A stretch of 64,000 nt of DNA from Candidatus Woesearchaeota archaeon (GCA_021735165.1 JAIPHP010000003.1:1419-65418), one strand, 5' to 3'. Positions 16,312 through 40,666 are shown, numbered from the stretch's first letter. The notes: generated by a model from the letters alone, not told the origin. Translations and numbers: made by a program.

Positions 16312-17055
16312 ATGAAATTCACACTCGCAGAACCAAAACTACTAAAAGAAAGTATTGCAATCATATCAGAATTAGTAACTGAAACCAGACTGCATGCAAC
16401 TAAAGACATGCTACAAATAATAGCAATGGACCCTGCAAACGTAGCAATGGTAATCTTCAAAATGCCATCAAGCTCATTTGTAGAATACAAGCTAGAAGAA
16501 GACACAACAATCGCAATAAACATGGCAAGCTTAAAACAAATACTAAGAAGAGCAAAACCAAAAGACGTGCTAAGCATAGAAACAACAGAAAATAAACTAA
16601 AATTAACACTAAAAGAAAAAAACACAAGAACCTTTGAATTACCACTAATAGACATAGACGAAAAAGATCAAAAAATACCAAAACTAAGTGCAAAGGCAAC
16701 TATAACAATGAAAAGCACGATATTTAATGATGCAATAGAAGACGTAGACATAGTATCAGAATCAGTAACTCTAATAGCACAAAAAGACAAACTATCAATA
16801 TCCGCGTCAGGAGACCTAACAAAAGCAGAAGTAGAAATAAATCCTAATGATGATGTAAAAATACAAATAGACGAAGAAGAACCACAAAGAAGCAAATACT
16901 CTGTAGAATACTTAAAAAAAATGATGCAAGGATCAAAACTATCAGAAACAGTAACCATAAAATTCTCAAAAGATTATCCAATAACAATAGAATACAAAGA
17001 AATAGACAAACTAGAACTAAGCTTTATACTAGCACCTAGAGTTGACAATGATTAA
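16312..17055 (+). CDS. pcn: DNA polymerase sliding clamp PCNA
   Basis: 247 aa, archaeal PCNA-like sequence ending in the characteristic ...ILAPRVDND C-terminus. Confidence 0.85.
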   Translation: MKFTLAEPKLLKESIAIISELVTETRLHATKDMLQIIAMDPANVAMVIFKMPSSSFVEYKLEEDTTIAINMASLKQILRRAKPKDVLSIETTENKLKLTLKEKNTRTFELPLIDIDEKDQKIPKLSAKATITMKSTIFNDAIEDVDIVSESVTLIAQKDKLSISASGDLTKAEVEINPNDDVKIQIDEEEPQRSKYSVEYLKKMMQGSKLSETVTIKFSKDYPITIEYKEIDKLELSFILAPRVDND

Positions 17056-17056
17056 T
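17032..17056. repeat. 25-bp direct repeat copy 1 (gcacctagagttgacaatgattaat), putative attL; covers the last codons and stop of PCNA
   Basis: Exact 25/25 match to 40642-40666. Confidence 0.65.
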
Positions 17057-17479
17057 AGGTACAGTTCAGGACTATAGAGCCAGGGTATAAAACTGGCTAA
17101 TTCCTTTGTTTTTCGTCTATAGAGTACGCCTAATTGTTTATGAAGTTCTCCCATTGTTCTTTAAAGGGAGCGTTTTTCTATATAAAACTTGTCGCTCAGG
17201 ACTAGTTTCCATTACAAACTTATACTTTCGGATAACATCTGGATGAAGTATAATAATGTCTAGTGATGAATAAGTTTTAACTCTGTTTTCTTTAGTAACA
17301 TTTACGCTAATAAAATAATATAAAGAAAGAAAGTTCTATTCTAGTTATCAGAAAATAATAACTTCAAGATGTAAGTTTCTTTATTTATTTTTTGATGTGA
17401 TTAAGTTTTGCCTCACAGAAGGCTTTGGAGCACAGACTCTTTTCTAAGATAGAAAACATACTGCAAAGGAGGTAAAACT

Positions 17480-17914
17480 ATGAAACAGATAAAAAGAAAG
17501 GACTTTACACAAGAGTTCATAATTAAAATAGTAAATCCACGAAAGATTGGAAATCAATGGACAGGTTATATTTCAACAATTCATGCAGCTAATTTCTTTG
17601 GTAAAGATCTAGAAGTATTTCCAATGAGGTACAGAGATGAAGATGAGAACCTTGGTCTTGCATATTATACAGAGATGCCATCTGATTATTATTACAGACC
17701 ATACAAAGTCTACAAGCTAAAGAAAAATTACAAGTTAGCAAATGGCGAGACAAAAACAACCTGGAGTTATTGTATTCCCATTCCTGCAAAGATGATGGTA
17801 GATGTAGGAATATCTAAGCATGATCCAAGAAAACATCTTACTATAACTGGAGGTATCCTTGAGGATGGTTCAAGAGTAATACTTGTGCAAAAGTATAAGC
17901 TAGAGGCTAAGTGA
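17480..17914 (+). CDS. hypothetical protein
   Basis: 144 aa ORF with an RBS-like GGAGG 8 nt upstream. Confidence 0.45.
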   Translation: MKQIKRKDFTQEFIIKIVNPRKIGNQWTGYISTIHAANFFGKDLEVFPMRYRDEDENLGLAYYTEMPSDYYYRPYKVYKLKKNYKLANGETKTTWSYCIPIPAKMMVDVGISKHDPRKHLTITGGILEDGSRVILVQKYKLEAK

Positions 17915-18010
17915 TAATTTCGCTAATAAATCGCGGGAATCATGTATGTCTTACCCTGAAAAAGTCCAATGTTTCCCGCAGATGATTCGAATTTATGGAA
18001 GTTATAGAAG

Positions 18011-20074
18011 ATGAAGAATAATATTGAAGATATAAGGTCTAAATTATTGAATCTTATGATGAATTGTCCTATTGTTGGGACTTCTGATGAAATTCATATG
18101 GAGATGAATAAATTTATTTATAGATTAATTCCTAATGATGCTGATAATAATTTAAAAGTTCTATCAGATATTAAACAACACATTCTTTCAATTAGAGAAA
18201 AACATAAGGATGAAGATATTCTTCTTGAAACTTTTAATTTTATTGATAGTTATTTAGGTTGTAAAAATTCTTTTTCTGATTTTGATAAAACTTCTAATGT
18301 TCCTAATTCTTTTTTAGATGCTTTAACTATGGTTGAGGGAGATAGAATAATTAGATCAGATAAACAATTTAATCAGTCTCAACTTAAAACAATTGCATTA
18401 CATTGTTATAATGAAATTAAAAGTTTATGTTTTACAATTTCTAGAGGGACAATATTAAAAGGTAAAATGGTTGGTGTATTAAGGAATGGAACTAAAGTAA
18501 AAATTCCTGTTATGACTTTGTATCAAGTTTCTGGAGGAGATAATCCTCAATACGCTCCTTATCTTTTTACAGATGCTCCGTCGAGAAAAAGAGTGTCAAG
18601 AGAATTGGCAGGGTATTTTTATATCTATAAATTTGTGAGTGAATCAGATGAACTTTTTATTGTTCTAAGTCAAAAGAAATTAGATCTTAGAAGATATGAA
18701 ATTGAAGGTAATGTCTTTGAAGTTAAAGATTCTAGTTTGATTGCTGAGACAAGTAAGATTCCTGTTAAGTCTAAAGTATTCTTCTTACATACTGCAAAGT
18801 CTGTTGTTACAAAACTAAAGAACCATGATGAGTTATTTTCTTTCTGTAAAGATAAGGGTGTAACTGCAGACAGAATGCTAAATTATATTGTTTCAATTAA
18901 TGATGATGGAAAAATTAAGATGTTTCTTCATCCTTTATGGTTTTTGCAATTATTATTCATATTTCTTATTCATGCTAAAAAAGGAGAAACCGATAAGTTT
19001 CCTCTTCATCTGCTTTGGATAGCTGATAGGGGTACTGGTAAAACCACTTGTCTTGAGGCAATAGTTCAAAAGTTTGGAGAGAAGATTATTGATGGATCTA
19101 CATCAACTCTCAAATATCTAATTCCAAGTTTTAAGGAAAGAAATAATCCTGAAATTGGTGCTTTAGCTGTTGCTGTTTTTATTGTTGGACTTGATGAATT
19201 TCTTAGAATGTTTTTCAAAGGAAAAAATGATGAAAGAAATATTGATGCTGCAAGAATGAATATTCTTCTTGAACATAAAGAACGTGCAGCAGGTTCAGGT
19301 CATGGAGCAACTATTGTTAAAATGACGGCAAGATTAATTGCTACAACTAATCCAGTTGCAGGAACAAATAATATCTATAATCTCTTAGATAAAGTTGATG
19401 ATAGTTTTCTTAGTAGAATGCTTATTTATTATCAGTTGCCTGAACATCAAGAGTTTATCAATGAGTCAAAAAAGAAGAGATATACTAAATCTGATTTTTG
19501 GCTTGATGAAGATGATTTTATTTCAATTATTGAATATCTGTCATGTTTTGAGGCTAGTTATGATTGGGATGAGTTGATTAAGTTATATGAATTGTTTAGT
19601 CTGCCATTAAGTGAAGAAGTTAAAGGGATGTATGAAGCTAGATATCTTCATCATCTTGAATGTATGCTTGATGGTGTTGTGAAAATGAGATGTCTTTTTG
19701 AGGGGGATAATAGTTTTACTGCTAAACCTGAAGATTATAAACTTCTTGAGTTTATCTTTGGAAAGATTATTTCTTCTTGGTTTGGAGACACAAGAGATTT
19801 AGTTTTGAATTTGAGTATTCCTGCAGAGAATAGAGTTAATTATCTTCCTGAACAGGCAAAGGTAATTTTGGATGTGTTAGGTCGTATTGGTTTTAAGACT
19901 AAGATTGAAGAGCTGAAAAAGGCGTGCCGATCAGAGATGAAAGAAAGTGCATTTGCAAGTATGTTGAGTTTGTTAAAGACTGGACATTTCATTTTTGAGA
20001 CAGGTTCTGAAGTAGAGCATTATGCTTATCATACGGAGGAACAAAATGAAAGAAGATCATTACGAAAAACTTAA
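18011..20074 (+). CDS. MCM-like AAA+ ATPase/helicase (mobile-element replicative helicase candidate)
   Basis: Walker A ADRGTGKTT, Walker B VGLDEF, sensor-1 IATTNP, SRM arginine-finger region (cf. MCM GDPGTAKS/DEFDKM/AAANP/SRFD). No obvious N-terminal C4 zinc finger. Confidence 0.55.
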   Translation: MKNNIEDIRSKLLNLMMNCPIVGTSDEIHMEMNKFIYRLIPNDADNNLKVLSDIKQHILSIREKHKDEDILLETFNFIDSYLGCKNSFSDFDKTSNVPNSFLDALTMVEGDRIIRSDKQFNQSQLKTIALHCYNEIKSLCFTISRGTILKGKMVGVLRNGTKVKIPVMTLYQVSGGDNPQYAPYLFTDAPSRKRVSRELAGYFYIYKFVSESDELFIVLSQKKLDLRRYEIEGNVFEVKDSSLIAETSKIPVKSKVFFLHTAKSVVTKLKNHDELFSFCKDKGVTADRMLNYIVSINDDGKIKMFLHPLWFLQLLFIFLIHAKKGETDKFPLHLLWIADRGTGKTTCLEAIVQKFGEKIIDGSTSTLKYLIPSFKERNNPEIGALAVAVFIVGLDEFLRMFFKGKNDERNIDAARMNILLEHKERAAGSGHGATIVKMTARLIATTNPVAGTNNIYNLLDKVDDSFLSRMLIYYQLPEHQEFINESKKKRYTKSDFWLDEDDFISIIEYLSCFEASYDWDELIKLYELFSLPLSEEVKGMYEARYLHHLECMLDGVVKMRCLFEGDNSFTAKPEDYKLLEFIFGKIISSWFGDTRDLVLNLSIPAENRVNYLPEQAKVILDVLGRIGFKTKIEELKKACRSEMKESAFASMLSLLKTGHFIFETGSEVEHYAYHTEEQNERRSLRKT

Positions 20075-20363
20075 TCTTTATGAAAGAAATAAAGAGGCAA
20101 GGCAAGCAAATCCCTGTATCAATCCAAACTGTGAAAATTTTGTTGATATTGGAAATCAATACAATATTTGTATTAGATGTTTTGAAATGTTAGTTGATTA
20201 TTATGGGTCAGAACATTTTATTTTTGATTATGTGACTAAACCTGCATTAAGAAGAATGCCTGTTGAACAATTAAAGAAAGTATTAGAGAAAGCAGAAAAA
20301 GAAAAACGAACTCTCAAAAATAAGAGATGGGGCATTTCTAACAGTCAAAAGAGGTGGGAATAG
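20022..20363 (+). CDS. small zinc-ribbon protein
   Basis: CxNPNC...CIRC motif; overlaps the MCM-like 3' end (probable start at the internal Met near 20046). Confidence 0.4.
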   Translation: MLIIRRNKMKEDHYEKLNLYERNKEARQANPCINPNCENFVDIGNQYNICIRCFEMLVDYYGSEHFIFDYVTKPALRRMPVEQLKKVLEKAEKEKRTLKNKRWGISNSQKRWE

Positions 20364-20767
20364 TGTCAAATAAGATAGATAATTTTAAAGGGAAAAGGCA
20401 CACTTTTTCGCCAGAAGAGAGGGCGAAAGGTGGAAGAAAAAGAACAGATAAGAAAATTTACAATTGTCAGACTAACGCAATCAAAAAAGGTAAAACTGAG
20501 AATGTTTTGAAAGATTGTAATTCTTGCAATATTCCTCTTTGTCCTTTTTTCAAAGAAGATGAGCAATGTAGTATGTTTAATACAAAGTTTGTAAGATTAG
20601 TTTCGTTTAAGAAAAACCTTTCTTCAATAAAAGATTTTGATGCATTTATGTTTAATTTTTTTCAAAGGGGTGCAAGGGCTCAAACATCGGATTCTTTTGA
20701 AGAAATGAAAATATTTCTTGATGACCTTTTAGAATATAGAGAGTGGAAATATGAATCGCTTAGATAA
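20354..20767 (+). CDS. small Cys-rich protein, paralog A
   Basis: Shares the N-terminal motif DNFKGKxHxF...ERxKGGxK with the next ORF; CNSCNIPLCPFF Cys cluster. Confidence 0.45.
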   Translation: MGIVSNKIDNFKGKRHTFSPEERAKGGRKRTDKKIYNCQTNAIKKGKTENVLKDCNSCNIPLCPFFKEDEQCSMFNTKFVRLVSFKKNLSSIKDFDAFMFNFFQRGARAQTSDSFEEMKIFLDDLLEYREWKYESLR

Positions 20768-21131
20768 TTTCAAAGGAAAGATTCACAAACTTACTAAAGA
20801 TGATTGTATTAGAGGAGGCAAGGTTTCCAGTGAACGTAAAAGAAAAGCAAATGGTATTAAAAATCTTCTTCATGGAAGAAATTCAGATAAACTATTTTTT
20901 CTTTTGAGTTGTATTGATTGTCCCGCTATTGGCAGATGTGAAAAAAGTCATGATGGATATTGTACTTATCTTCTAGAAGAGATGAAACTCAATAGGGATT
21001 TTTCTAAGCAGGTTGCCAGATGTCTTCATGTTGATAAAGAAGGACTTGATCCAACTACTTTTCTGATGAAGAAATATGAATTAAATAAAGAGTATATTGC
21101 TATGTTGTTTCCTAGCGACTCCAATGGATAG
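20751..21131 (+). CDS. small Cys-rich protein, paralog B
   Basis: N-terminal LDNFKGKIHKLT...RGGK motif paralogous to 20354-20767; CIDCPAIGRCEKSHDGYC cluster. Confidence 0.45.
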   Translation: MNRLDNFKGKIHKLTKDDCIRGGKVSSERKRKANGIKNLLHGRNSDKLFFLLSCIDCPAIGRCEKSHDGYCTYLLEEMKLNRDFSKQVARCLHVDKEGLDPTTFLMKKYELNKEYIAMLFPSDSNG

Positions 21132-21170
21132 TTTGCTTCTCGACGGTGTTTATATATGTCTTAGAGCATC

Positions 21171-21464
21171 ATGGATGACAATAATAACACGAGGTATAAT
21201 AATATGGCAAACAAAAAAACAAAGAAAGATTCTTTTTACCAAATGGCTAAGAAAGTACTCAATACAGAAAAGAAACCTATGCACTATGCAGACATTACAA
21301 GGGAGATCTTAAAGACAAAAGAAAGTAAAGGTAAGAGTCCTGAAAGAACTGTAATGGCTGTAATCATTAGAGATTCTCATGATGTGTTTATGAAAATGGG
21401 TGATGGTGTTTTTGGACTTACTAAATTAAAAGAACTTTATTCCGCTGAAAGTTCAAAGGTTTAA
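21171..21464 (+). CDS. HARE-HTH-like winged-helix DNA-binding protein
   Basis: Pattern YQMAKKVL...MHYADITREIL...SPERTVMAVIIRDSHDVFMKMGDGVFGL resembles the HARE-HTH domain. Confidence 0.4.
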   Translation: MDDNNNTRYNNMANKKTKKDSFYQMAKKVLNTEKKPMHYADITREILKTKESKGKSPERTVMAVIIRDSHDVFMKMGDGVFGLTKLKELYSAESSKV

Positions 21465-21707: not shown

Positions 21708-22307
21708 ATGACAAAGATACTCATTGCTACGCTCTATGTATTTGAACCTGTAATAGCTTCTGCAACGAAAATGAGTGCTGACAGACTCATTCTACTTATT
21801 GATAAGAAACCCGATAAGAAGCAAGTAGAATCGCTAGAAATACTAAAGAAATCACTTGGTTCAGTCATGGAAATAACTACTGTTGAGACTGAAGTGTATG
21901 ACATTGTTGAAGTAGCAAAAGAGACTGTTAAGATAATTGATCTTCTTTCTGATAAAGATGAAATCTATGTTGATATAACTGCTGGTCGTAAGACTAAAGC
22001 TTTAGGATTATTATTTGGTGCATATGCTCGAACTGACAGAGTAAAAAAGATAATGTATGTAAAAGAAGAGGATAAGTCCATTGTAAGTCTCCCTAAATTA
22101 TCTTATGCTATTACTCCAGGACAATATAAAATAGTTCATTATTTGCACAAGAATTCTATTGTTTCAATGATTGACCTTGCAAAGGAGATAGATATAAGCC
22201 GAGCCATGCTCTACAAACATATCAAAGAACTTAAGGATATGGATGTTATTGAGAACACTAAAGAAGGTCTCCAATTGACTGATTATGGGAGGATAGTGGT
22301 GCTTTAA
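21708..22307 (+). CDS. Csa3-like transcriptional regulator (CARF-like Rossmann domain plus C-terminal wHTH)
   Basis: N-terminal LIATLYVFEP...DITAGRKTKALGLL resembles the Csa3/CARF core (TxGF...DxTxGxR); C-terminal helix-turn-helix IVHYLHKNSIVSMIDLAKEIDISRAMLYKHIKEL. Confidence 0.5.
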   Translation: MTKILIATLYVFEPVIASATKMSADRLILLIDKKPDKKQVESLEILKKSLGSVMEITTVETEVYDIVEVAKETVKIIDLLSDKDEIYVDITAGRKTKALGLLFGAYARTDRVKKIMYVKEEDKSIVSLPKLSYAITPGQYKIVHYLHKNSIVSMIDLAKEIDISRAMLYKHIKELKDMDVIENTKEGLQLTDYGRIVVL

Positions 22308-22308
22308 A

Positions 22309-23157
22309 ATGGATAAAGAAAACAAGATTGTAGTATTCCAGGATAAAAAGATTAGAAGAACTTGGTTTAATGATGAATGGTGGTTTTCTATACTTGATAT
22401 TATAGGTGTTCTAACTAATCAATCTGATTATCAAAAGGTTCGTAATTACTGGAAATGGCTTAAAAATAAGCTAAAGGAAGAAGGAAGCGAGTTGGTTAGT
22501 GATACTAACCAACTGAAATTAGAAGCAGCAGATGGGAAAAAGTACAAAACTGATGTTGCTAATACTGAGCAAATATTTAGGTTGATCCAGTCAATCCCTT
22601 CTCCAAAAGCTGAACCTTTCAAACAGTGGCTTGCAAAAGTAGGTTATGAAAGAATTCAAGAAATAGAGAATCCTGAACTTGCTCAAGATAGAGCTAAAGA
22701 GTATTATGAACTTAAAGGATATCCTAAAGATTGGATTGACAAAAGACTTCGAGGGATTGCAGTTCGTCAAGCATTGACTGAAGAATGGAGCAACAGAGGA
22801 ATTGAAGAAAAAAGAGAATATGCCATCCTTACTAATGAAATATCTAAAGCAACTTTTGGTGTTGGAATTAAAGATCATAAGAAAGTCAAAGGTCTTGATC
22901 CAAAATTCAAGAATCAGAACCTTCGTGATCATATGACTGATCTTGAGCTTATCTTTAACATGCTTGGAGAAGCATCAACTACTGAGATTGCAAAGAAGAA
23001 AGATGCTCAAGGTTTTGTAGAAAATAAACTTGCAGCTAAAGAAGGTGGAAAGATAGCTGGAGATGCAAGAAAGAATCTTGAACTAAAGACAGGAGATAAA
23101 GTAGTTAGTGAAAAGAACTATCTTGATCTAAAGAAGAAGAGGAAAGAGTTGAAATGA
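22309..23157 (+). CDS. Bro-N / DinD-like (DNA-damage-inducible protein D family) protein
   Basis: N-terminal FQDKKIRRTWFNDEWWFSILDI...KKYKTDVANTEQIFRLIQSI matches the Bro-N/DinD pattern; shares the GKKYKT module with the downstream RhuM. Confidence 0.55.
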   Translation: MDKENKIVVFQDKKIRRTWFNDEWWFSILDIIGVLTNQSDYQKVRNYWKWLKNKLKEEGSELVSDTNQLKLEAADGKKYKTDVANTEQIFRLIQSIPSPKAEPFKQWLAKVGYERIQEIENPELAQDRAKEYYELKGYPKDWIDKRLRGIAVRQALTEEWSNRGIEEKREYAILTNEISKATFGVGIKDHKKVKGLDPKFKNQNLRDHMTDLELIFNMLGEASTTEIAKKKDAQGFVENKLAAKEGGKIAGDARKNLELKTGDKVVSEKNYLDLKKKRKELK

Positions 23158-24323: not shown

Positions 24324-24332
24324 TAATGGCAC
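24286..24332. repeat. 47-bp direct repeat copy 1 (tttcactatctaagaagagaacNgagggggaagaataataatggca), flanks rhuM
   Basis: 46/47 identical to 25351-25397; contains the SD GAGGGGGAAG and the ATG of rhuM. Confidence 0.7.
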
Positions 24333-25350: not shown

Positions 25351-25397
25351 TTTCACTATCTAAGAAGAGAACAGAGGGGGAAGAATAATAATGGCAA
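25351..25397. repeat. 47-bp direct repeat copy 2, carries the SD and ATG of hsdM
   Basis: Matches 24286-24332 with one mismatch. Confidence 0.7.
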
Positions 25398-28525: not shown

Positions 28526-28845
28526 CTGATAAAGTTAAACCTCTGCCACCAGTAAAAGTAAAAATCAATCTTTGGAATTATTTAAAGTTAGGATTTTTAA
28601 TTTTAATATCTTGCATACTTTGGATTACATTAATTATTACAGGCATTAATTTGTTAGGGTATTATATTAAATCAATTATAGTTAATGGATTTTTTGATCC
28701 TGAAACCTTAAAATATGCCGTCATGCTTGTTGTTGGAGCTTATTTCTTTTTAATACTCGATAAAAATAAGATCTATGAAGCACTTAATGTAAAGAGGGGT
28801 TTGCCATTCATTACAGTTGAACAAATAGAGGAGAAAAAGAAATGA
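28522..28845 (+). CDS. small membrane protein (2 TM)
   Basis: 107 aa with two hydrophobic helices; translationally coupled (ATGA) on both sides. Confidence 0.45.
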   Translation: MTDKVKPLPPVKVKINLWNYLKLGFLILISCILWITLIITGINLLGYYIKSIIVNGFFDPETLKYAVMLVVGAYFFLILDKNKIYEALNVKRGLPFITVEQIEEKKK

Positions 28846-31181: not shown

Positions 31182-31200
31182 TATTTAAGGAGGCATCATA

Positions 31201-34200
31201 ATGGCAAAAACTAAAGAAAGTGATTTTGAGGAGGCAATCGTTGACTCTCTTGTAAACTCAGGAGGGTATGAAGAAGGAGATCCTAAGGATTTTGATTCAG
31301 AGACAGCAATATTCAAGAATGATTTATTCAATTTTTTACAAAAAACTCAACCTAATGAGTGGAAGAAATCTCTTGAGGTTCATGGTAATGATGTTGAAGA
31401 GAAAGTTCTATTTAGATTAACGCAAGAATTACAGTCTAGAGATATTTTAGATGTACTCCGAAATGGGTTTACCGATTATGGAGTAAAATACAAATTAGCT
31501 TTTTTTAAGCCTGAGACTAAATTAAATCTTGATGATGCTAAAAGATATAAGAATAATCTCTTAAAAGTTACACGACAAGTTCATCACTCTCCTAATAATC
31601 CTGATCTTTCCTTAGATTTAGTTTTATCTATTAATGGTATTCCTGTTGCTACAGCTGAACTTAAAAATCAGTTCACAGGTCAGAATGTATCTAATGCTGA
31701 AAGGCAATATATTGAAGATAGAGATCCTAATGAATTAATTTTTCAATTTAAGAGAAGAACCTTAGTTCATTTTGCTATTGATACTGATGAAGTGTTTATG
31801 ACAACTAAACTTGAAGGTAAGAGAACTAGATATTTGCCTTTTAATCAAGGAGATAATAATGGTGCAGGTAATCCCTTAAATCCTGATGGATACAAAACTG
31901 CTTATCTTTGGGAGTATGTTTGGTCTAAAGATAGTTGGATGGATATATTACAGAAATTTGTTCATTTACAAACTGAAACCTACAAGATAGAAGGTAAAAC
32001 TATAAAAAAAGAAAAGATGATTTTTCCTAGATACCATCAATTAGATTCTGTAAGAAAACTAACTCAAGATGTAAAGTCAAAAGGTGCAGGTATTAATTAT
32101 TTAATTCAACATTCTGCAGGAAGTGGTAAATCTAATTCTATTGCCTGGTTAGCTTATAGGTTAGCAAGTCTTCATAATAAAGAAGATAAGGCTGTATTCA
32201 ATAGTGTTATTGTTGTTACTGATAGAACTGTTCTTGATAAACAATTACAAGATACAATTTATCAGTTTGAACATAAACAAGGAGTTGTTCAAAAGATTGA
32301 TAAGAATTCAACTCAATTAGCTGAATCGCTTACAAAAGGTATTCCAATTATCATTACAACATTGCAAAAGTTTCCATTTGTTCTTGATAAAATTGGTAAA
32401 TTACCTAAGAGAAAATATGCTGTTATTGTAGATGAAGCTCATTCTTCTCAAGGTGGAGAATCTTCTAAAAAGATGAAAGAAGTTCTTTCTATAAAAGACT
32501 CTGAAAAAGCATTGAATACTTTAACTGAAGAAGCTGAAGATCTTGCAGAAGATGAAATCAGGAAATCTATGGAAGCGAGAGGAAAGCAAGATAATCTAAG
32601 TTTCTTTGCATTTACTGCCACTCCTAAAAATAAAACATTAGAAGTATTTGGTCATAAGAAAAATAAGAAACCATATCCTTTCCATCTTTACTCTATGCGA
32701 CAAGCAATTGAAGAGGGATTTATTATTGATATATTAAAGAATTTTACAACATACAAAACTTATTTCAAATTATCTAAAGAAATTGAAGATGATCCTAAGA
32801 TAAATAAAAAGAAAGCTGCACGAGCAATAGCAAGGTTCTTAACTTTACACCCTCATAATTTATCACAAAAAACCGAAGTTATGGTGGAACATTTTAGACA
32901 AGTTGTAATGCATAAAATTGGAGGTAAAGCAAAAGCAATGGTTGTAACAGCCTCTAGACTTCATGCAGTAAGATACTATCAAGAGTTCAATAAATATATC
33001 AAAGAAAAAGGATATAGCAATATTAAAACACTTGTCGCATTTTCAGGGATTGTTAAAGATGAATTCGGTAACGAGTTTAAAGAAACTATTATGAATGGTT
33101 TTAAAGAAAAAGAATTGCCTGATAAGTTTAATACTAGTGAATATCAAATTCTTTTAGTTGCAGAAAAATATCAGACTGGATTTGATCAACCATTACTCCA
33201 TACTATGTATGTTGATAAAAAATTATCTGGTGTGAAAGCTGTTCAAACATTATCTAGATTAAATAGAGTTTGTTCAGGAAAAGAAGATACTTTCATCCTC
33301 GATTTTGCAAATACAGAAGAGGAAATTATTGAATCATTCCAACCTTACTATGAAATTACAACTATTGATGAACCAACAAATCCTAATAGGTTATATGATC
33401 TTAAGACAAAACTAGATCAAACAAGAGTTTATACAAATTCAGAAATAGATAGTTTTGCTAAGTTCTTCTTTAAACCAAAAGAGCGATATACTGTAAGAGA
33501 TAATGCTCAATTAAATAGATTTATTGATCCTGCAGTTGATAGATATAAAGGAATTAGCGGTGAAGATGATAAAGAAGATTTCAAACACACACTTACTGTG
33601 TTTATTAGAACTTATGCCTTCTTGGCTCAGATAATGCCTTTTAATGATGCTGAACTTGAAAAACTATTTGCATACGGTAAACTTCTTTTGAACAAACTTC
33701 CAAAAAGACAACTAGGAGAACAATTCAAACTAAATGATGAAGTTGCCTTGGAATATTATAGACTACAAAAAATCAAAGAAAGTCATATTAAACTTGAAAA
33801 AGGAAAAGTTGGAGAGTTAAACTCTGCAAAAGAAGCAGGAATAAGAAAAGACAAAGAAGAGAAAGCCAAACTATCCGAATTAATCGAAGTATTAAACGAT
33901 AGGTTTGGAACTGACTTTACTGAAGCAGATAAATTGTTCTTTGATCAAATTGAAGCTGAGCTAGTTGAAGATCAAAAGCTAAAAAGTAGTGCCGAAGTAA
34001 ATAATATTGAAAACTTCAAGTTTGGATTTGATGACCAATTCATGAATAAGTTAATTGATAGGATGGAACAAAATGAAGACATCTTTAGAAAAATAAATGA
34101 TGATAAAGTATTTGCTTCTGTAGTTAAAGACTATATGCTAAAGAAAGTTTACAATAGACTAAAAGAAGAAGAGAAAACTCTTTCAAAGTATCTAACTCAA

Positions 34201-34266
34201 GACGGTTCTGCTATGGCTGTTGCTGATAAAAAAGAAAAGTACGGTAAGAAGAAGGTGAAGAAATAA
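31201..34266 (+). CDS. hsdR: type I restriction enzyme R subunit HsdR
   Basis: 1021 aa; SF2 helicase motifs including GSGKS-like QHSAGSGKSNS and DEAH box VIVDEAHSSQ; RBS AAGGAGG upstream. Confidence 0.9.
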   Translation: MAKTKESDFEEAIVDSLVNSGGYEEGDPKDFDSETAIFKNDLFNFLQKTQPNEWKKSLEVHGNDVEEKVLFRLTQELQSRDILDVLRNGFTDYGVKYKLAFFKPETKLNLDDAKRYKNNLLKVTRQVHHSPNNPDLSLDLVLSINGIPVATAELKNQFTGQNVSNAERQYIEDRDPNELIFQFKRRTLVHFAIDTDEVFMTTKLEGKRTRYLPFNQGDNNGAGNPLNPDGYKTAYLWEYVWSKDSWMDILQKFVHLQTETYKIEGKTIKKEKMIFPRYHQLDSVRKLTQDVKSKGAGINYLIQHSAGSGKSNSIAWLAYRLASLHNKEDKAVFNSVIVVTDRTVLDKQLQDTIYQFEHKQGVVQKIDKNSTQLAESLTKGIPIIITTLQKFPFVLDKIGKLPKRKYAVIVDEAHSSQGGESSKKMKEVLSIKDSEKALNTLTEEAEDLAEDEIRKSMEARGKQDNLSFFAFTATPKNKTLEVFGHKKNKKPYPFHLYSMRQAIEEGFIIDILKNFTTYKTYFKLSKEIEDDPKINKKKAARAIARFLTLHPHNLSQKTEVMVEHFRQVVMHKIGGKAKAMVVTASRLHAVRYYQEFNKYIKEKGYSNIKTLVAFSGIVKDEFGNEFKETIMNGFKEKELPDKFNTSEYQILLVAEKYQTGFDQPLLHTMYVDKKLSGVKAVQTLSRLNRVCSGKEDTFILDFANTEEEIIESFQPYYEITTIDEPTNPNRLYDLKTKLDQTRVYTNSEIDSFAKFFFKPKERYTVRDNAQLNRFIDPAVDRYKGISGEDDKEDFKHTLTVFIRTYAFLAQIMPFNDAELEKLFAYGKLLLNKLPKRQLGEQFKLNDEVALEYYRLQKIKESHIKLEKGKVGELNSAKEAGIRKDKEEKAKLSELIEVLNDRFGTDFTEADKLFFDQIEAELVEDQKLKSSAEVNNIENFKFGFDDQFMNKLIDRMEQNEDIFRKINDDKVFASVVKDYMLKKVYNRLKEEEKTLSKYLTQDGSAMAVADKKEKYGKKKVKK

Positions 34267-34267: not shown

Positions 34268-34648
34268 ATGGCTTTTGCATTATCATTAAAACAACCATGG
34301 GCTGAATTGATTTTACAAGGTAAGAAAACAATTGAGACTAGGAGATGGAATACTGAGTTTCGAGGAGAGTTCTATATTCATGCTTCCAAAACCATTGATA
34401 AAGAAGCTTGTGAAGAGTTAGGGATTGATCCTTCTTCTTTGGTTACTGGTGTTATTGTTGGGAAGGCAACAATAGTTGATGTTAAGGAGTATTATTCTGA
34501 AGACCAATTTATGAAAGATAATTCTAAACACCGAGCAGGATTTTATGGGTTTGGACATCCTCTTTTTGGATTCATATTGGAAGATGTAGAGCGAATCGAA
34601 CCAATTCCTCAGAAAGGTGCTCTGAAGTTTTTTGAGGTGAATGTATAA
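34268..34648 (+). CDS. ASCH-domain (PUA-like) protein
   Basis: LSLKQPWAELILQGKKTIETRRW is the hallmark ASCH N-terminal motif; starts 2 nt after the hsdR stop. Confidence 0.65.
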   Translation: MAFALSLKQPWAELILQGKKTIETRRWNTEFRGEFYIHASKTIDKEACEELGIDPSSLVTGVIVGKATIVDVKEYYSEDQFMKDNSKHRAGFYGFGHPLFGFILEDVERIEPIPQKGALKFFEVNV

Positions 34649-36912
34649 TGGGATCACGTACTGGCTCTACATTTAAGTCATTGGCTGGACGAAAGAGAGG
34701 CAGTAAATTAAAGAGTATTGGTGCTTCTATCTCTGCAGGCATGCAAGCAGGAGAAACAGCTATTGTTTCATCTGGAGGTGCTGTTAGTGCAGGATCTGGA
34801 GCAATTGTTAGTGGAGGGGGTAGTGGTGCAGGAGTTGCTTTTGTAGCACCAATTGCAGGAGCAGCTGCTTTAGTTGCAAGTAGTAAGCCTTCTATGGATG
34901 TAGTGTATCATACTACCAAGTTAGCTGATTCTGTTTTAAAAAATCTGAATGACCTAACTAACAAATATCAAACTGCAAGTCAGAATCAGCCTGTTTATTC
35001 TTATTTTGCTAAAAGTCCAGTTGAGTTTCCAGTTAATATGGTTCAGAGCATGGTTGTTGATGAAGTTTCTGATCTTGCATGGGCTAATGTAAAGAGTGAA
35101 CTTGGATTAAAGACAACTGCACACCAGGATAGAATTGCGAAATTTATCATTTCACAATTAATTGGTCTTACATTGAACATGATTAAACAGAAAATAAAAG
35201 GAGAGAAAATAGACAAGCACTTTTTCTATAAAGAAGTTATGGGTGCAGCTATTGAATATTGCCTTGATGGGTTTATGCAATCAAATGCAGAAAATGAAGT
35301 CTTATCATCAAACCCTTCTGTTGCTTATTGCCAAATGGAGACTGGCTCACAAAAAGTTTTTCAAACAGCTACAAAAGAGATTGCCAAAGAACTGGCAGAA
35401 TTAATCTATGATGATATCTCTTCTCAAAACGAGTTTCCAGAACAAAAGCAATTCAATAGGATACTAAAGAAAAGAGTCACTGAAAAACTAAAGGTAGAAG
35501 TGGAAGCCACAGAATATGAAGGGGATTCTGATTTCAAAAAGCAACGTCTTCTCGCCTCTGATCAAAAAAAAGTCCCAGATAAATTAGATAAGAAAGATGT
35601 TGTGATCTCTACTCAAACCACTGTCAATAAAAGAAAGATTGATGATTCTTTGAGAATACGATTTACCGCACCAGAGAATGATTATGTAAGGGGAAGGATA
35701 ACTCCTGCACATAGGGATTTGCTTTCTATAACATCTACTATTTCAAAAATAGAGTATCTAATGAGAAGTGGTGATGTCACGAATATTTTACCTACTGACA
35801 CAATCATTTACTCCAACACAGACATTTCTAAGAAAACCAGAAGCCTTGTTAATACACTTGCTTCTTTTTTGCTAACCTTTAACCCAAATATATCTATAAA
35901 GAAAAATAGTGCCTCTTCGGAAAAAAAAGAACAAAAGGAAAATACAGAAAAATCTGATGTTATTGTTCTATTCTCTGGAGGATTAGATAGTTTAGCAGGA
36001 TTAGAATATGCAAAGAAAAAATACAAAAACCCTAAGTTTGTATATGTGAATAATCAAGTCAATAGAACAAGTGCTGTTGTAAGATATCTTCAACATAAAC
36101 TCCATTTAGGAGATGACCTTATTATTTTCCAAAGTCAGAAAGGAGGACAATTTCTACAACAGACAAGAGGATTTTTATTTCTCTCTGCCGCGGCTGTCAC
36201 CGCAGATGTGTTTGGAGCTAAAGAAATAATTGTTGCAGAATGCGGGGTAACAAAATATCAACCCAGTACAACCATTTCTGATGAGATTACAAAAACAACC
36301 CACCGATTAATGATTGAATTGGCAGAACATATTTTCTCTGAGTTCAATATAAATGTAAAAATCAAGTTCCCATTTGATATGAAAACTAAAGCTGAGATCA
36401 TAGCAGGATATCCAGACAAAAAGCTTCTTATTGATTCTCATTCGTGTAGATCATCAAGATTTTCAGATAAAGATAAGGATGAATGTGGATATTGTTTTGC
36501 TTGTCTACTAAAAAATATAAGTTTATCTTATGTGTTGGGCAAAAAACAAGACCAGTTTTTAATTGATCCAATTACAAATTCACAATCCTTTACAACTCAG
36601 AATTTAGGAAGAACCAGATCGTTAAAGAATAAGTGCTATGAATCAATTTTCTCACTTATTAATTTCTCCAAATCAATGCTTGCAGGCAATCTTCCAGAGC
36701 CAATACAAAAGTACATGCAGGACTATGGAACAACTAAATTATTCAAGAATCATGCAGAAGATATGATTTATGGGCTTATGTTCATGAAGAATAAAGGATG
36801 GGTAAAAAATGAGAAAGTTCTCGAATTGCTTAACAAAATTGAGAAGGAATCTTGGTTTGATAAAAAACAAATACTTGAACGAAGAAAAGAATTACTAAAT
36901 GTTAAGACTTAG
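34648..36912 (+). CDS. fusion protein: Gly/Ala/Ser-rich N-terminus, unknown middle domain, C-terminal QueC-like PP-loop ATPase
   Basis: C-terminal VIVLFSGGLDSLAG (SGGxDS PP-loop) and CGYCFACLLKN Cys cluster as in QueC; N-terminal 80 aa GSxGAxVSGGGSGAGVAFVAPIAGAAALVASS (Gly-zipper/hydrophobic); 1-nt overlap with the ASCH gene. Confidence 0.6.
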   Translation: MGSRTGSTFKSLAGRKRGSKLKSIGASISAGMQAGETAIVSSGGAVSAGSGAIVSGGGSGAGVAFVAPIAGAAALVASSKPSMDVVYHTTKLADSVLKNLNDLTNKYQTASQNQPVYSYFAKSPVEFPVNMVQSMVVDEVSDLAWANVKSELGLKTTAHQDRIAKFIISQLIGLTLNMIKQKIKGEKIDKHFFYKEVMGAAIEYCLDGFMQSNAENEVLSSNPSVAYCQMETGSQKVFQTATKEIAKELAELIYDDISSQNEFPEQKQFNRILKKRVTEKLKVEVEATEYEGDSDFKKQRLLASDQKKVPDKLDKKDVVISTQTTVNKRKIDDSLRIRFTAPENDYVRGRITPAHRDLLSITSTISKIEYLMRSGDVTNILPTDTIIYSNTDISKKTRSLVNTLASFLLTFNPNISIKKNSASSEKKEQKENTEKSDVIVLFSGGLDSLAGLEYAKKKYKNPKFVYVNNQVNRTSAVVRYLQHKLHLGDDLIIFQSQKGGQFLQQTRGFLFLSAAAVTADVFGAKEIIVAECGVTKYQPSTTISDEITKTTHRLMIELAEHIFSEFNINVKIKFPFDMKTKAEIIAGYPDKKLLIDSHSCRSSRFSDKDKDECGYCFACLLKNISLSYVLGKKQDQFLIDPITNSQSFTTQNLGRTRSLKNKCYESIFSLINFSKSMLAGNLPEPIQKYMQDYGTTKLFKNHAEDMIYGLMFMKNKGWVKNEKVLELLNKIEKESWFDKKQILERRKELLNVKT

Positions 36913-37570
36913 TTTGCTCATTAAAACTATAATATCCTTCATTACCAATAATTACATGATCCAACACTTTAATAGATAATAATTCTCCTGACTTAAACAA
37001 TATGTCTGTAATTTTAATATCTTCTTCTGAAGGTTCTGCTTCTCCTGATGGGTGATTGTGAACAAGAATAACAGAATTTGCACTTTCTTTTATTGCAGAT
37101 TTGAAGACTTCACGAGGATGAATCAAAGAACTATTCAAAGTACCTACAGAAATAATTTCATCCTTGATAACTCTGTTTCTTGTATCTAGATGTAAGATCA
37201 TGAAGTGTTCTTTATCCGCTCCATTAAGTTTTGGGTGTGCATAATCAAATACATCTTTTGCTGATTTTATTGGTTTTCCATTTTGTTTAGATAAACTGTG
37301 TCTTTTATTGAATTCAAATAGTGCAATTATTTGAGAAGCTTTAGCTTTTCCTATGCCTTTAATCTCTTGTAATTCTTTTAATGAACAAGAAGACAATTTA
37401 TTAACTCCATATTTAGAAATAAGTCTATTGGACATATCAATTACGTTTTCTTCTTTTGTTCCTTTTTGTAGAATCACAGCTAATAGTTCTGAGTCTGAAA
37501 GTACAGAAACTCCTTGTTTTTCCATTCTTTCTCTAGGTCTATTCTCTAAAGAGATGTCTTTAATACGCAT
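36902..37570 (-). CDS. radC: RadC-family JAB/MPN (JAMM) domain protein
   Basis: JAMM motif HNHPSGEAEPSEED (HxHx7Sx2D), N-terminal HhH-like region; typical RadC/DUF2466. Confidence 0.8.
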   Translation of the reverse strand: MRIKDISLENRPRERMEKQGVSVLSDSELLAVILQKGTKEENVIDMSNRLISKYGVNKLSSCSLKELQEIKGIGKAKASQIIALFEFNKRHSLSKQNGKPIKSAKDVFDYAHPKLNGADKEHFMILHLDTRNRVIKDEIISVGTLNSSLIHPREVFKSAIKESANSVILVHNHPSGEAEPSEEDIKITDILFKSGELLSIKVLDHVIIGNEGYYSFNEQTKS

Positions 37571-37628
37571 TAATACATGATATCTTATGGTGTTTGATAA
37601 AGGTTTCTAAGAATTATCCGAAAGATTT

Positions 37629-37814
37629 TCACTTTTTCTGAACAATTATTTCATGTATTTCTCTAATTCTTTTTTCATTTATCATCTCATCACTTAGCAA
37701 TAAATCTCTAATAAATTGAGAAAGAGAAATGTATCCTTTGCATTCTTTTCTTAATTGTATTAATTCGTATTGTTTTGTAGTTACTCTAAAGTTGATGAAT
37801 CTAGTTCTTTTCAT
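37629..37814 (-). CDS. ribbon-helix-helix (MobC/CopG-like) small DNA-binding protein
   Basis: RTRFINFRVTTKQYELIQLRKECKG-YISLSQFIRDLLL pattern; 4-nt overlap with the upstream ligase gene. Confidence 0.45.
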   Translation of the reverse strand: MKRTRFINFRVTTKQYELIQLRKECKGYISLSQFIRDLLLSDEMINEKRIREIHEIIVQKK

Positions 37815-38620
37815 TTATCTTCTCTCACTCTTAAGATTTTTGGAAATCTCAACTTATAGCTGTCTTCTTTTTTATACATCATGTCATACCCAACCTCGAC
37901 TGTTTGTCCATTCTCTATATATAGTTTTGAGCTTGCTGTTCCTATCTGTTTTTCTCCTTCATTTAATGTGTATATCCATCCAAGATTATCTTTTCTTTCT
38001 CTTCTACTAATTACTTGCAAGTCTACTGTTCTAAGTGGTTTTTTCTTTAGCCAATTATATCGAGAGCCTGGATGATAAGGACTGCAGTTCTTTACTACTA
38101 TTCCTTCCATTCCTTTTTTTATCATCTTTGTATAAAACTCTTGTATGTCAACGATAGTATTGGTGCAAAAGAATGGAACGTGAGAAAGATGTTTATTTTC
38201 CTCAATCATCAAACCTAGATGTTGTTTTCGGGATAATAATGGATCTTTATAGAGGAAATGTTCTCCTATCTGTAAAACATCAAAAACAAAATATACAAAC
38301 TTTTGTCCAGGAGGAAGTTTCTTTAGCAGTACCGAATTTGAACTTAATATTTTTCCATTATCGACTACTGCTATTTCTCCATCCAGTATCATATTGATTC
38401 CATGAATTCCTTTTATTACTTCTTCTCCAAGATTTCCAAATCTTTTAGTCCAGTCTGCTCCACTTCTTGTAAAGAACTTGATATCATCTCCTTGTTTCAA
38501 ACATAGAATACGAACTCCATCTATCTTTGGCTCTACAAATACTCCCTCGTTATTGTAGAGAAAGATTCCTAAATCGCCTTCTCCTACTAATTGTGGCTTA
38601 AATTTCGTCAGATCTATCAT
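37811..38620 (-). CDS. small ATP-dependent DNA ligase
   Basis: Adenylation motif I EPKIDGVRIL (KxDGxR), motif V-like EGIVVK; 269 aa minimal ligase typical of mobile elements. Confidence 0.7.
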   Translation of the reverse strand: MIDLTKFKPQLVGEGDLGIFLYNNEGVFVEPKIDGVRILCLKQGDDIKFFTRSGADWTKRFGNLGEEVIKGIHGINMILDGEIAVVDNGKILSSNSVLLKKLPPGQKFVYFVFDVLQIGEHFLYKDPLLSRKQHLGLMIEENKHLSHVPFFCTNTIVDIQEFYTKMIKKGMEGIVVKNCSPYHPGSRYNWLKKKPLRTVDLQVISRRERKDNLGWIYTLNEGEKQIGTASSKLYIENGQTVEVGYDMMYKKEDSYKLRFPKILRVREDK

Positions 38621-38957
38621 TATTCGTTACCTCCTTAACCTCTTTATCAAGTAGCTTCAAAACCCACTTTCCACTACCTTGTGACGAGTGTGAACTCTTG
38701 AAATAAACTGCGAGTAAAGAACCAACATTAAACTCGCTGGCTTTCTCAATTATTCCATGCAGTCCTCTCATCTTGAACTTCTCTTCAGCTGTACTTTTTA
38801 CTTCCACAAGGAAAGTCTTTGTTTTACTAAACAAAACAACATCACAGACAGAATATTTTCTTCTGCCTGATGCAGCTACTCTTTCTGTATGGAAACCTTG
38901 TTCCTTCATGAGATTACAAAAATCTCTTTCATATTGCAGATGGCTTTTTAGTCTCAT
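38598..38957 (-). CDS. hjc: Holliday-junction resolvase Hjc-like PD-(D/E)xK nuclease
   Basis: ERVAASG...CDVVLFSK...LVEVKST resembles the archaeal Hjc catalytic core (E...D...EVK). Confidence 0.6.
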   Translation of the reverse strand: MRLKSHLQYERDFCNLMKEQGFHTERVAASGRRKYSVCDVVLFSKTKTFLVEVKSTAEEKFKMRGLHGIIEKASEFNVGSLLAVYFKSSHSSQGSGKWVLKLLDKEVKEVTNNDRSDEI

Positions 38958-40470
38958 CTTCTAATCGTACCTCCACTTGTTTTTTTACTAGATGATGGGC
39001 TTTGCATTTGCCCACTATCACATCTTCGTGATTCTCATATCTTTCAAGCAAAATAGTTTCTTCATGTAAGTCTTTGATTTGTTTGTCCTTATCGTACTTG
39101 ATTCCCATTTCATTACAATAAGCGATGATCCTCTCCACTTTCTTCGCATATAATAACAAACATCCTGTCTGTCTTGCCCAATCAAATAATTTGATTCCCA
39201 TAGGATTATTCATAATCAAAACGGGCTTTAGAGAATTGAATTGAGGAATCTTTCTCATATCATATGAGAAACCTTGAGACATACAACCAATCATGGAAGT
39301 GATGTATTTTTTTCCAGCCATACCAAGATATTTTCCTTTCTTATCTCGCTTAATAGAAACAGCATAACCCATAATCGGAACATCCATGATATCATCATAG
39401 ACATAAATTAGATAATCTATTGGATCATTATCAAACTTCCAAACATCAACTAAACGTTTTCCTTTCTCGTCAGTATATTTGTGAATACTATCTTTGTTAA
39501 ACCACGAAGGAATCTTCTTAGGAAAATCAGCATTAAGACGAACCTGTAATTTATACCTCTTAATCAGATACATTACAAAATAGAATATTGCCTGTTCTTC
39601 AAACGCAAAACCAAGAGAACTATTATCAAGAATGCTTTTGACTACCTCTTTTTGATGAATCTTAGGAACAAGTTCTGCAATTAAATCTTCTGGTCTTGAA
39701 GGATTGTAATAATAACGTCTTTGCTTATAGGAAAAGACTTTCAACCAACTCACGCTGACCAATCGATAAATTATCCAAGATTTGATGACTTCCTCATCAA
39801 GCTTATACCTATCCTTAAGAATGTCTACTGGAAAGATCTCATTAGAATGTATTATATCAAGATACGCAGTCCTAATTCCCTTAGGCATCAAATTCAATAT
39901 TTTAAGCTTGACAGCATCATCATCCCTGCCATAGACATATCCTGGTTTTCTACCATGAATCATCTCAGTAGCAGGAATAGTGAACTCACTTCTGCTAATC
40001 TTTCCAGCAGTAAACAACTCCCTAATACACTGATAAGTATAATCCCAATTACCATAATCCTCAAGAGATGGATAATCCTTAAGCTGATAGAAGACCTCTG
40101 CTAAAGTAAGCCCTGCCTTATTATTCTGAAAGATCTCAAAGACTTTAGCCTTGATACCAACCAAGAGCTCATCAGTATCAACTGTCTTGTTAAAAGACTC
40201 AATCTTCCTATTGACATCATCCTCACTAATACCATACACAAAAGAACGAGAACACATCCTTTTCTCAGACTGGACTCTAACCTTACTCTTAACAATCAAA
40301 TCCTTAAGCAATAATTGCTTTAAATAACTAGAAACATGATGCTTCTGAAGAGAAGTACCCTTAAACTCATCAGCAATCTCACTGGAAATCACAGCCCTCT
40401 TACGCACTATGAATTTATAGATCTTGTAAGTGTAAGATCCAGTATTGAACATAATATTCTTTTCCGCCAT
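38929..40470 (-). CDS. hypothetical protein with N-terminal wHTH-like region, adjacent to the putative attR
   Basis: 513 aa ORF; first gene inside the right border; no integrase catalytic motifs recognized. Confidence 0.45.
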   Translation of the reverse strand: MAEKNIMFNTGSYTYKIYKFIVRKRAVISSEIADEFKGTSLQKHHVSSYLKQLLLKDLIVKSKVRVQSEKRMCSRSFVYGISEDDVNRKIESFNKTVDTDELLVGIKAKVFEIFQNNKAGLTLAEVFYQLKDYPSLEDYGNWDYTYQCIRELFTAGKISRSEFTIPATEMIHGRKPGYVYGRDDDAVKLKILNLMPKGIRTAYLDIIHSNEIFPVDILKDRYKLDEEVIKSWIIYRLVSVSWLKVFSYKQRRYYYNPSRPEDLIAELVPKIHQKEVVKSILDNSSLGFAFEEQAIFYFVMYLIKRYKLQVRLNADFPKKIPSWFNKDSIHKYTDEKGKRLVDVWKFDNDPIDYLIYVYDDIMDVPIMGYAVSIKRDKKGKYLGMAGKKYITSMIGCMSQGFSYDMRKIPQFNSLKPVLIMNNPMGIKLFDWARQTGCLLLYAKKVERIIAYCNEMGIKYDKDKQIKDLHEETILLERYENHEDVIVGKCKAHHLVKKQVEVRLEDETKKPSAI

Positions 40471-40641
40471 TTATCATACCTTATTACAATAAATGACAGA
40501 ATTAGAGTGCATAAATAGTTAGTTCGCTTAATTAGTATTATTTATCTCCCAATTCGATATATTTTTATACATTAATCATATTAAACGGTTAAGACGTTGA
40601 ATATGACTAGTTGGCAATGAAAGGTCCCGAGCAAAGTGAGT

Positions 40642-40666
40642 GCACCTAGAGTTGACAATGATTAAT
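40642..40666. repeat. 25-bp direct repeat copy 2, putative attR
   Basis: Exact match to 17032-17056. Confidence 0.65.

Follow-up and report, generated by a model that had tools for sequence, protein, structure and literature searches.

By what means does a mobile element insert itself at the very end of a protein-coding gene when it encodes no recognizable recombinase? The question is raised by a 64-kb stretch of DNA from a Candidatus Woesearchaeota archaeon (GCA_021735165.1, JAIPHP010000003.1:1419-65418; 64,000 nucleotides in total, hereafter the window), in which a 23.6-kb interval bounded by direct repeats begins at the end of the gene for the replication clamp, PCNA. An earlier note on this DNA had described the interval as an integrated element and had pointed to the 513-aa protein encoded next to its right border (e513) as a candidate integrase. 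The explanation that best accounts for the data as a whole, and one that we consider probable, is that positions 17057-40641 are an integrated element belonging to a Woesearchaeota-restricted family that is site-specific for the last codons and the stop codon of PCNA; the narrower statement that this is an integrated, PCNA-specific element can be made with high confidence. The further assignment, namely that a module consisting of the nuclease-like e513, a Hjc-type Holliday-junction resolvase and a DNA ligase is the integration machinery, is tentative. Related loci and proteins are referred to below by L and P numbers, respectively; L006, L041, L043 and L047 come from contigs CAZJQL010000001.1, JAIPJP010000004.1, ERZ27249683 k141_908792 and ERZ27250158 k141_396599, in that order.

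A likely integrated element at the end of the PCNA gene

The 25-mer GCACCTAGAGTTGACAATGATTAAT is present in two exact copies in the window, both on the plus strand (the left and right attachment sites, attL and attR; Table 1), with no third copy in the window even when three mismatches are allowed, the number expected by chance being 0 (100 shuffles). The left copy consists of the last 8 codons of PCNA, its stop codon and one more base, and the C-terminus of the 247-aa protein, which matches both Pfam domains of PCNA, is intact (...LAPRVDND), with the same ending as in its relatives. Judging from the relatives of this PCNA, the host belongs to Woesearchaeota, a DPANN lineage. The right copy is intergenic, lying 172 nt upstream of the minus-strand e513 gene and 121 nt before an ATP-binding cassette (ABC) transporter gene. 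Neither tRNA genes nor Rfam families were detected in the element region. The earlier note, which had reported a perfect repeat with one copy encoding the end of PCNA and the other located between genes, is borne out in each of these respects.

Integration is further supported by loci from other hosts. In L047-L049, PCNA is followed by the genes for a 144-aa-type protein (e144), an AAA+ ATPase (e687, 687 aa in the window), small open reading frames (ORFs) and HARE-HTH, Csa3 and Bro proteins, and the encoded proteins are 84-98% identical to those of the window. The PCNA proteins of these loci are only 53% identical to that of the window, and PCNA is preceded by different genes. In nucleotide sequence, the window and L047 share 90% identity over 6.2 kb, including 94.1% in the arm that follows the stop codon, compared to 66.7% in the last 66 nt of PCNA, and nothing further upstream aligns; the jump in similarity begins at the PCNA stop codon. 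A third lineage, L050, retains the order PCNA-e144-e687, with e687 and e144 being 47% and 51% identical, respectively, to their counterparts in the window. That unrelated hosts carry the same backbone immediately downstream of the PCNA stop codon upholds the proposal of an element integrated at the 3' end of PCNA with the C-terminus of the protein preserved.

Among 39 species-level PCNA loci, e513 is encoded near PCNA in L006 only, and e144 or e687 in none; most of the related genomes carry PCNA without the element. In L002, a Woesearchaeota metagenome-assembled genome and the closest relative (PCNA 81% identical to that of the window), PCNA is followed by ordinary host-like genes. Two other loci may contain remnants of related elements at the PCNA site: in L019, a gene for RadC (3062-3709) that is 62% identical to RadC of the element directly follows PCNA, and in L025, a HARE-HTH fragment (12765-12872) is located 2 kb downstream of PCNA.

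The interval also stands out from its surroundings in composition. The frequency of A at third codon positions amounts to 0.50-0.67 in the flanking host genes versus 0.22-0.47 in the genes of the element, in line with the earlier remark that the latter are less A-rich. The e513 gene is the most deviant (0.22), and the codon usage of the Hjc gene is foreign as well. The coding-strand AT skew is 0.3-0.45 in the flanking host genes, and the element genes show strong GC skew.

The view, expressed in the earlier note, that integration into the 3' end of a protein-coding gene is unusual needs to be corrected: 14 of 68 thaumarchaeal elements are integrated in 3'-distal parts of protein genes (PMC6563490). 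This class of target is already known; a new mechanism of integration is a realistic but unproven prospect. Our survey of the literature found no report of PCNA as an attachment target or of a nuclease-Hjc-ligase module at the termini of an element.

Four genes common to all complete elements

Three elements are complete, namely that of the window (23.6 kb) and two smaller ones of 8.4 kb and about 9 kb. The latter are found in L045 and L061, where both ends are visible and where the e513-Hjc-ligase genes, 5-6 kb of cargo and a PCNA gene on the opposite strand mirror the arrangement in the window. All-against-all comparison of the three elements shows that only e513, Hjc, the ligase and an e144-family protein are shared. 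The gene for the last of these (130-144 aa) is located beside the PCNA stop codon and reads inward in all three complete elements, as do the e144 homologues that follow the PCNA stop codon in L047-L050; e144 has no match in Pfam, PHROGs, NCBIfam, PADLOC or the PDB. At the other end, the order e513-Hjc-ligase is found in every locus that is long enough, with varied host flanks upstream and variable cargo downstream, and in the window the Hjc ORF overlaps both of its neighbours (ligase and e513). Neither a replication gene nor a recombinase was found in the two small elements. The family is diagnosed by the succession of the PCNA stop codon and e144 at one end and of ligase, Hjc, e513 and a terminal motif, M (see below), at the other.

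What lies between these anchors is interchangeable and includes type I and type II restriction-modification (R-M) systems, GmrSD, TIR, QatC/QueC-like and Cas4-like proteins, as well as an AAA+ helicase module shared with tailed viruses. For instance, the cargo of L047 (12287-14095, 18283-19157) encodes GmrSD and an AAA_15/AAA_21 ATPase, that of L043 (9015-12272) TIR, QueC, Ogg, TGT and SLATT proteins, and that of L041 (15775-18052) an MvaI/BcnI type II R-M system and a DUF2779 protein. Defence genes are shuffled on a common platform, with the cargo varying between otherwise near-identical backbones.

A mimic of the PCNA end at the distal terminus

In 15 loci, the 14-nt motif M, TAGTC[A/T/G]TATTCAA[C/G], is located 109-130 nt upstream of the e513 start codon, although the e513 proteins of these loci are down to 44% identical and the sequence outside M is unrelated. 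From the outer edge of M onwards, L054 and L055 share 94% identity across 4.8 kb, and their flanks are unrelated, indicating that M marks the end of the element. The reverse complement of M, GTTGAATATGACTA(A/G), resembles the end of PCNA genes (GTTGAnAAyGAyTAR) and always terminates in GAYTAR, that is, an Asp codon followed by a stop codon. A short imitation of the PCNA 3' end is thus carried by the element itself at one of its termini, about 120 nt upstream of e513.

The length of the direct repeat differs among the complete elements (7, 10 and 25 bp). In L061, where PCNA has an unusual ending (...VETED*), the M region shares 10 bp, CGAGGATTAA, with the PCNA end, and in L045 the core common to the M region and the host PCNA end is GACTAAT (7 bp). 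Because the repeat length is variable and the copy in the element resembles PCNA beyond the perfect repeat, the repeats are best understood as homology of the att type rather than as a target-site duplication; their length reflects the extent to which the mimic in the element and the end of the host gene agree.

Direct repeats flanking the interval could also have been produced by target-site duplication through a transposase or casposase-like enzyme, or by a chance or local duplication in a host hot spot comprising PCNA and the e513-Hjc-ligase genes, and PCNA and this trio indeed recur near each other in several lineages. Repeats of 7, 10 and 25 bp do not fit a fixed stagger, however, and neither terminal inverted repeats nor members of the Cas1 or DDE families were found; near-identical element ends are found in unrelated contexts, the codon usage of e513 and Hjc is not that of the host, and e513 is represented in only about 28 protein clusters and at one of the 39 species-level PCNA loci. 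Taken together, these observations render such an origin very improbable. Two specific candidates were rejected, namely a transposon with terminal inverted repeats and target-site duplication, given that no such repeats are present and the repeat length is variable, and a conserved host gene neighbourhood, given the foreign codon usage and the rarity of the arrangement at PCNA loci.

A winged-helix nuclease-like protein next to the terminus

Large protein collections contain about 26 close and about 10 distant relatives of e513, essentially all from Woesearchaeota-type contigs, and no relatives were found in viral contigs. A short e513-like family (P0068, P0071) is represented on contigs of insufficient length to reveal the gene context. 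The AlphaFold model of e513 consists of three winged helices (residues 1-260) followed, after a long helical linker, by an alpha/beta domain at the C-terminus, with a predicted local distance difference test score (pLDDT) of 73 for the full-length protein and 83.5 for the domain model. The C-terminal domain displays the alpha-beta-beta-beta-alpha-beta core fold of PD-(D/E)XK nucleases; Foldseek searches with the full-length model retrieved winged-helix arrays only, and the nuclease fold was seen with the domain-only model. In 25 diverse relatives, P350, D352 and K374 are invariant and E291 is at least 90% conserved, and in the close family the S372-x-K374 pair is invariant. Nothing significant emerged when e513, e687 and e144 were compared with the PDB by sequence and by profile, and PHROGs, NCBIfam and PADLOC scans of the backbone proteins yielded nothing beyond a weak match to an Lrs14-type winged helix.

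The succession of a winged-helix array, a helical linker and a C-terminal PD-(D/E)XK domain is also that of FokI (2fok), MspJI (4f0p), AspBHI (4oc8) and BspD6I (2ewf/2p14), and the conserved E, P-x-D and S-x-K residues are shared with FokI-type enzymes. We do not classify e513 as a type IIS R-M enzyme, because it has no sequence similarity to these proteins and no partner methyltransferase, adjacent methyltransferases being variable cargo or absent. Unlike that of FokI, the e513 gene always opens an operon that also encodes Hjc and ligase and that occupies one end of a mobile element. The proposal that e513 is a candidate integrase is reasonable, given that it is one of only four proteins encoded by all complete elements and that its gene is always terminal. 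It is a winged-helix PD-(D/E)XK nuclease and not a tyrosine or serine recombinase; the profile searches of the border proteins suggested in the earlier note gave no integrase match for either e513 or e144. Judging from its modelled fold and conserved residues, e513 is a candidate for the component that recognizes and cleaves the site.

Given the nuclease fold, e513 might alternatively be a defence enzyme, either modification-dependent (type IV) or solitary and type IIS-like, in which case the interval would merely be a defence island with anchor genes unrelated to mobility. Such a role would accord with the lack of a methyltransferase linked to e513 and with a cargo made up mostly of defence genes. 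We nevertheless consider it improbable: PADLOC returned no match for e513, Hjc, the ligase or e144, the mobility of the block is apparent from near-identical copies with unrelated flanks, and this reading explains neither the fixed distance of 109-130 nt to the junction motif nor the obligatory overlapping genes for Hjc and ligase, nor the fusion to an integrase domain described next.

A distant relative, P0079 (604 aa; L051, 7003-8817), is homologous to the winged-helix and nuclease-like part of e513 over its first ~385 residues (profile E 5e-6; tblastn E 1.4e-7 over residues 152-408), with P350, D352 and K374 conserved, and continues into the catalytic domain of Pfam family Phage_integrase (E 2.5e-11), which e513 lacks. 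P0079 is encoded by the sole plus-strand gene of L051, an 11-kb virus-like contig in which no Hjc or ligase was seen. We know of no other case in which a module composed of winged helices and a PD-(D/E)XK-like domain is fused to a tyrosine integrase.

A possible route of integration

When all ORFs of the interval were scanned with Pfam, PHROGs, NCBIfam and PADLOC, none matched the tyrosine or serine recombinases, in agreement with the earlier note, and none matched Cas1 or DDE enzymes; tblastn searches with the integrase domain of P0079 gave no match either in the window or in the related loci. Because no recognizable integrase is among the shared genes, an undescribed route of integration is possible. 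Under such a scenario, e144 together with e513, Hjc and the ligase would constitute an integration and excision module; in the circular form, the e144 unit and the e513 operon would diverge from the attachment site. e513, with its three winged helices and PD-(D/E)XK domain in a FokI-like layout, would recognize the PCNA end and cleave nearby, strand exchange would take place across the short stretch of identity, the resulting four-way intermediate would be resolved by Hjc, and the nicks, which a nuclease, unlike a tyrosine recombinase, could not reseal, would be closed by the ligase. In the related virus-like contig L051, a fused tyrosine-recombinase domain might take the place of Hjc and ligase. 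In this complete form, that is, recombination at the PCNA stop codon by e513, Hjc and ligase, possibly guided by e144 and with no classical recombinase involved, the scheme appears rather doubtful.

It is possible, though less likely than not, that the element is genuinely PCNA-specific but is non-autonomous and integrated by a tyrosine recombinase supplied in trans by the host or a helper, or else is integrated by a cryptic recombinase encoded among the unannotated ORFs, the e513-Hjc-ligase trio serving replication, concatemer resolution or repair. In that case e513 would be an origin nickase or processing nuclease, Hjc would resolve branched intermediates and the ligase would close circles. 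Short direct repeats that vary in length and coincide with the 3' terminus of a gene are the classical att signature of tyrosine recombinases (PMC6563490). The e513-like module that is fused to a real tyrosine-integrase domain in P0079 could be a mere DNA-binding accessory, and genes for resolvases and ligases are common in viral replication modules. Conversely, no such recombinase was seen in the 64-kb window or in about 30 related loci, the catalytic residues of the nuclease are invariant even in distant relatives, and the 8-9-kb elements, which have no replication gene, keep exactly the four genes beside the att core.

A number of observations count against the integration model, either as regards the element itself or as regards the proposed enzymes. 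An empty site in a near-identical strain was not found: exact look-up of the PCNA protein retrieved occupied contigs only, and exact look-up of the flanking ABC protein gave nothing on record. Circular junctions were not found either, the order e144-attP-e513 being absent from all loci by profile search, and the 25-mer had no match in the viral collection. In L050, the left backbone is present with no e513 in the available DNA. In L006 and L060, the e513 operon directly follows PCNA in the same orientation, an arrangement that requires an inversion or an inverted core. Furthermore, we infer the roles of e513, Hjc, ligase and e144 from position, conservation and the absence of alternatives; a set of nuclease, resolvase and ligase fits a replication or concatemer-resolution module equally well, and a cryptic recombinase may be hidden among the small unannotated ORFs or a host enzyme may act in trans. 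Finally, the right end of the element in the window is complex, with M lying 31 nt inside the 25-mer and with an outer part of M (GACTAG) that is unlike the host PCNA end (GATTAA).

The complexity of the right end can be approached through related loci. L043 and L062 share with the window the ABC flank and the layout of M, spacer and repeat, with a decayed copy of the repeat (9 of 25 positions differ), and in L058, which has the same ABC flank, M is joined directly to the flank. These layouts, along with the mismatch between the outer bases of M and the host PCNA, suggest that the 25-mer is the present crossover site in the lineage of the window. M and the spacer look like an older junction that has been carried along, or else reflect a different history.

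Inside M, the window also has an inverted PCNA-end-like sequence, which recurs in L052 (2148-2172) and is absent from most other loci. As a conjecture, recombination between attL and this inverted inner copy would yield the arrangement of L006 and L060, in which e513 follows PCNA. We rejected the pair of inverted PCNA-end-like sequences around a 9-nt spacer as a general core, since it is found only in the window and L052.

Relationship to known integrative systems

To our knowledge, the well-characterized routes of site-specific integration in prokaryotes are confined to tyrosine and serine recombinases, DDE and HUH transposases and Cas1. The integrases described so far in archaea are tyrosine recombinases (PMC8371274), and in several respects the present family is similar to the pNOB8-type elements that depend on such enzymes: insertion is site-specific and targets the 3' end of a gene, the coding end of which is preserved, the short direct att repeats have a length set by the identity of attP and attB, and interchangeable R-M and other defence cargo is combined with a plasmid- or virus-like replication module. 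Unlike in pNOB8-type elements, none of the three complete elements encodes a tyrosine recombinase or another known integrase, and the genes that flank the att sites are those for a winged-helix PD-(D/E)XK nuclease, Hjc, an ATP-dependent ligase and a small protein. By contrast to SSV-type elements, there are no integrase fragments at the borders, where e144 and e513 are encoded instead. The family differs from casposons and DDE transposons in having no Cas1 or transposase, no terminal inverted repeats and a variable repeat length.

A PD-(D/E)XK nuclease breaks DNA during movement of other elements, as in the case of TnsA of Tn7 and the restriction-like homing endonucleases. Unlike Tn7, the present elements lack a TnsB-like DDE partner, terminal inverted repeats and a target-site duplication of fixed length and, unlike in classical homing, they move between hosts without flanking homology.

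If the four shared genes are the integration machinery, they would represent a new, modular kind of site-specific recombination, with a programmable-looking integrase composed of a nuclease and a ligase. Even otherwise, this is a new family of mobile elements for Woesearchaeota, the mobilome of which is almost undescribed: a family from DPANN archaea that targets the stop codon of the replication-clamp gene, a single and highly conserved site, and a platform on which defence cargo (restriction of types I, II and IV, TIR and QatC-like proteins) is exchanged between distantly related hosts.

The helicase module and its viral relatives

The earlier designation of e687 as MCM-like is weakly supported and is valid at the level of the P-loop motif only. 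There is no match to Pfam MCM, phmmer searches against the PDB gave nothing, and comparison of the e687 family profile with MCM9 was limited to the P-loop region (E 0.98). A relative of e687, P0051, bears a PrimPol domain, and a 40%-identical relative is encoded in L069 (2049-11811), a tailed-virus contig from IMG/VR, along with the terminase large subunit, portal, ParB and Dam methylase and, following the e687 relative, a weak PrimPol-like protein. The presence of this relative in L069 suggests that the replication module of the element is shared with Woesearchaeota-type viruses. The block of small ORFs and the HARE-HTH gene that follows e687 in the window is syntenic in L047-L050 and is found at the far end of L041. 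Profile scans, including Pfam and PHROGs, detected no capsid, portal or terminase genes in the element of the window. A provirus was rejected as an identity for the element, given the lack of tailed-virus structural genes and the fact that only the helicase is shared with L069.

Gene content and neighbourhood

Genes were identified by profile scans with Pfam, NCBIfam, PADLOC and PHROGs, and the features of the element are listed in Table 1. Apart from the MCM label, the gene content given in the earlier note is confirmed, including HsdM, HsdS and HsdR, the Cas4-like protein, RhuM, Bro-N, the Csa3-like regulator, Hjc, the ligase and RadC.

Table 1. Coordinates of the element, its genes and its borders in the window.
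Feature	Position	Strand	Evidence
PCNA gene, 247 aa, probable integration target	16312..17055	+	Pfam PCNA_N and PCNA_C
attL, left copy of the perfect 25-bp direct repeat	17032..17056	+	Exact repeat search
Non-coding left arm of the element	17057..17479	+	94.1% identical to L047; no Rfam family, no tRNA
e144, 144 aa, conserved terminal gene next to attL	17480..17914	+	Position shared with homologues
e687, 687-aa AAA+ ATPase, putative replicative helicase	18011..20074	+	Pfam AAA, E 0.0025, below cutoff
Small backbone ORFs (113, 137 and 126 aa) and HARE-HTH protein	20022..21464	+	Pfam HARE-HTH
Cargo: Csa3/HFX_2341-like regulator, Bro-N, Cas4-like PD-(D/E)XK protein (PDDEXK_1), RhuM	21708..25348	+	Pfam, PADLOC
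Cargo: type I R-M system, HsdM, HsdS and HsdR	25391..34266	+	Profile matches
Cargo: ASCH-domain protein and 754-aa QatC/QueC-like protein	34268..36912	+	Pfam, PHROGs, NCBIfam and PADLOC scans
RadC (JAB domain) and 61-aa NikA-like ribbon-helix-helix protein	36902..37814	-	Pfam
ATP-dependent DNA ligase, 269 aa, conserved trio	37811..38620	-	Pfam DNA_ligase_A_M, E 4e-31; NCBIfam
Hjc-type Holliday-junction resolvase, 119 aa, conserved trio	38598..38957	-	Pfam Hjc, E 1e-11
e513, 513 aa, three winged-helix domains, helical linker and C-terminal PD-(D/E)XK domain	38929..40470	-	
Inner inverted PCNA-end-like sequence, GTTTAATATGATTAA	40572..40586	-	9 nt from motif M
Reverse complement of terminal motif M, GTTGAATATGACTAG	40596..40610	+	Conserved across loci
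attR, right copy of the perfect 25-bp direct repeat	40642..40666	+	Exact repeat search

Two ORFs without assigned function (107 and 779 aa) are located between HsdS and HsdR. RadC and the NikA-like protein are facultative members of the right-end operon, carried by only some of the related loci. The C-terminal part of the 754-aa cargo protein (34648-36912) is a QatC/QueC-like domain (NCBIfam QatC, E 4e-25, well short of the curated cutoff), and the N-terminal ~400 aa of the protein are without matches; its gene is preceded by that of the ASCH protein, and no other Qat components were seen.

Directly upstream of PCNA, the window encodes an 898-aa protein without a Pfam match (13483-16179). Large ORFs are likewise found upstream of PCNA in L002 (956 aa) and L006 (928 aa). 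The L002 protein has exonuclease-like motifs, as judged by eye, and the 898-aa protein of the window may be a divergent replication protein.

A second stretch with element-like composition (third-position A of 0.31-0.43 and strong GC skew) is present at positions 46317-53699 of the window. It is a copper/heavy-metal cluster that encodes a MarR/DUF7343 regulator, a CopA-type P-type ATPase, a cupredoxin and an HMA-domain protein, as well as a 442-aa protein of no assigned family and an alpha/beta hydrolase. In L050, the short PCNA-linked element is immediately followed by a similar cluster.

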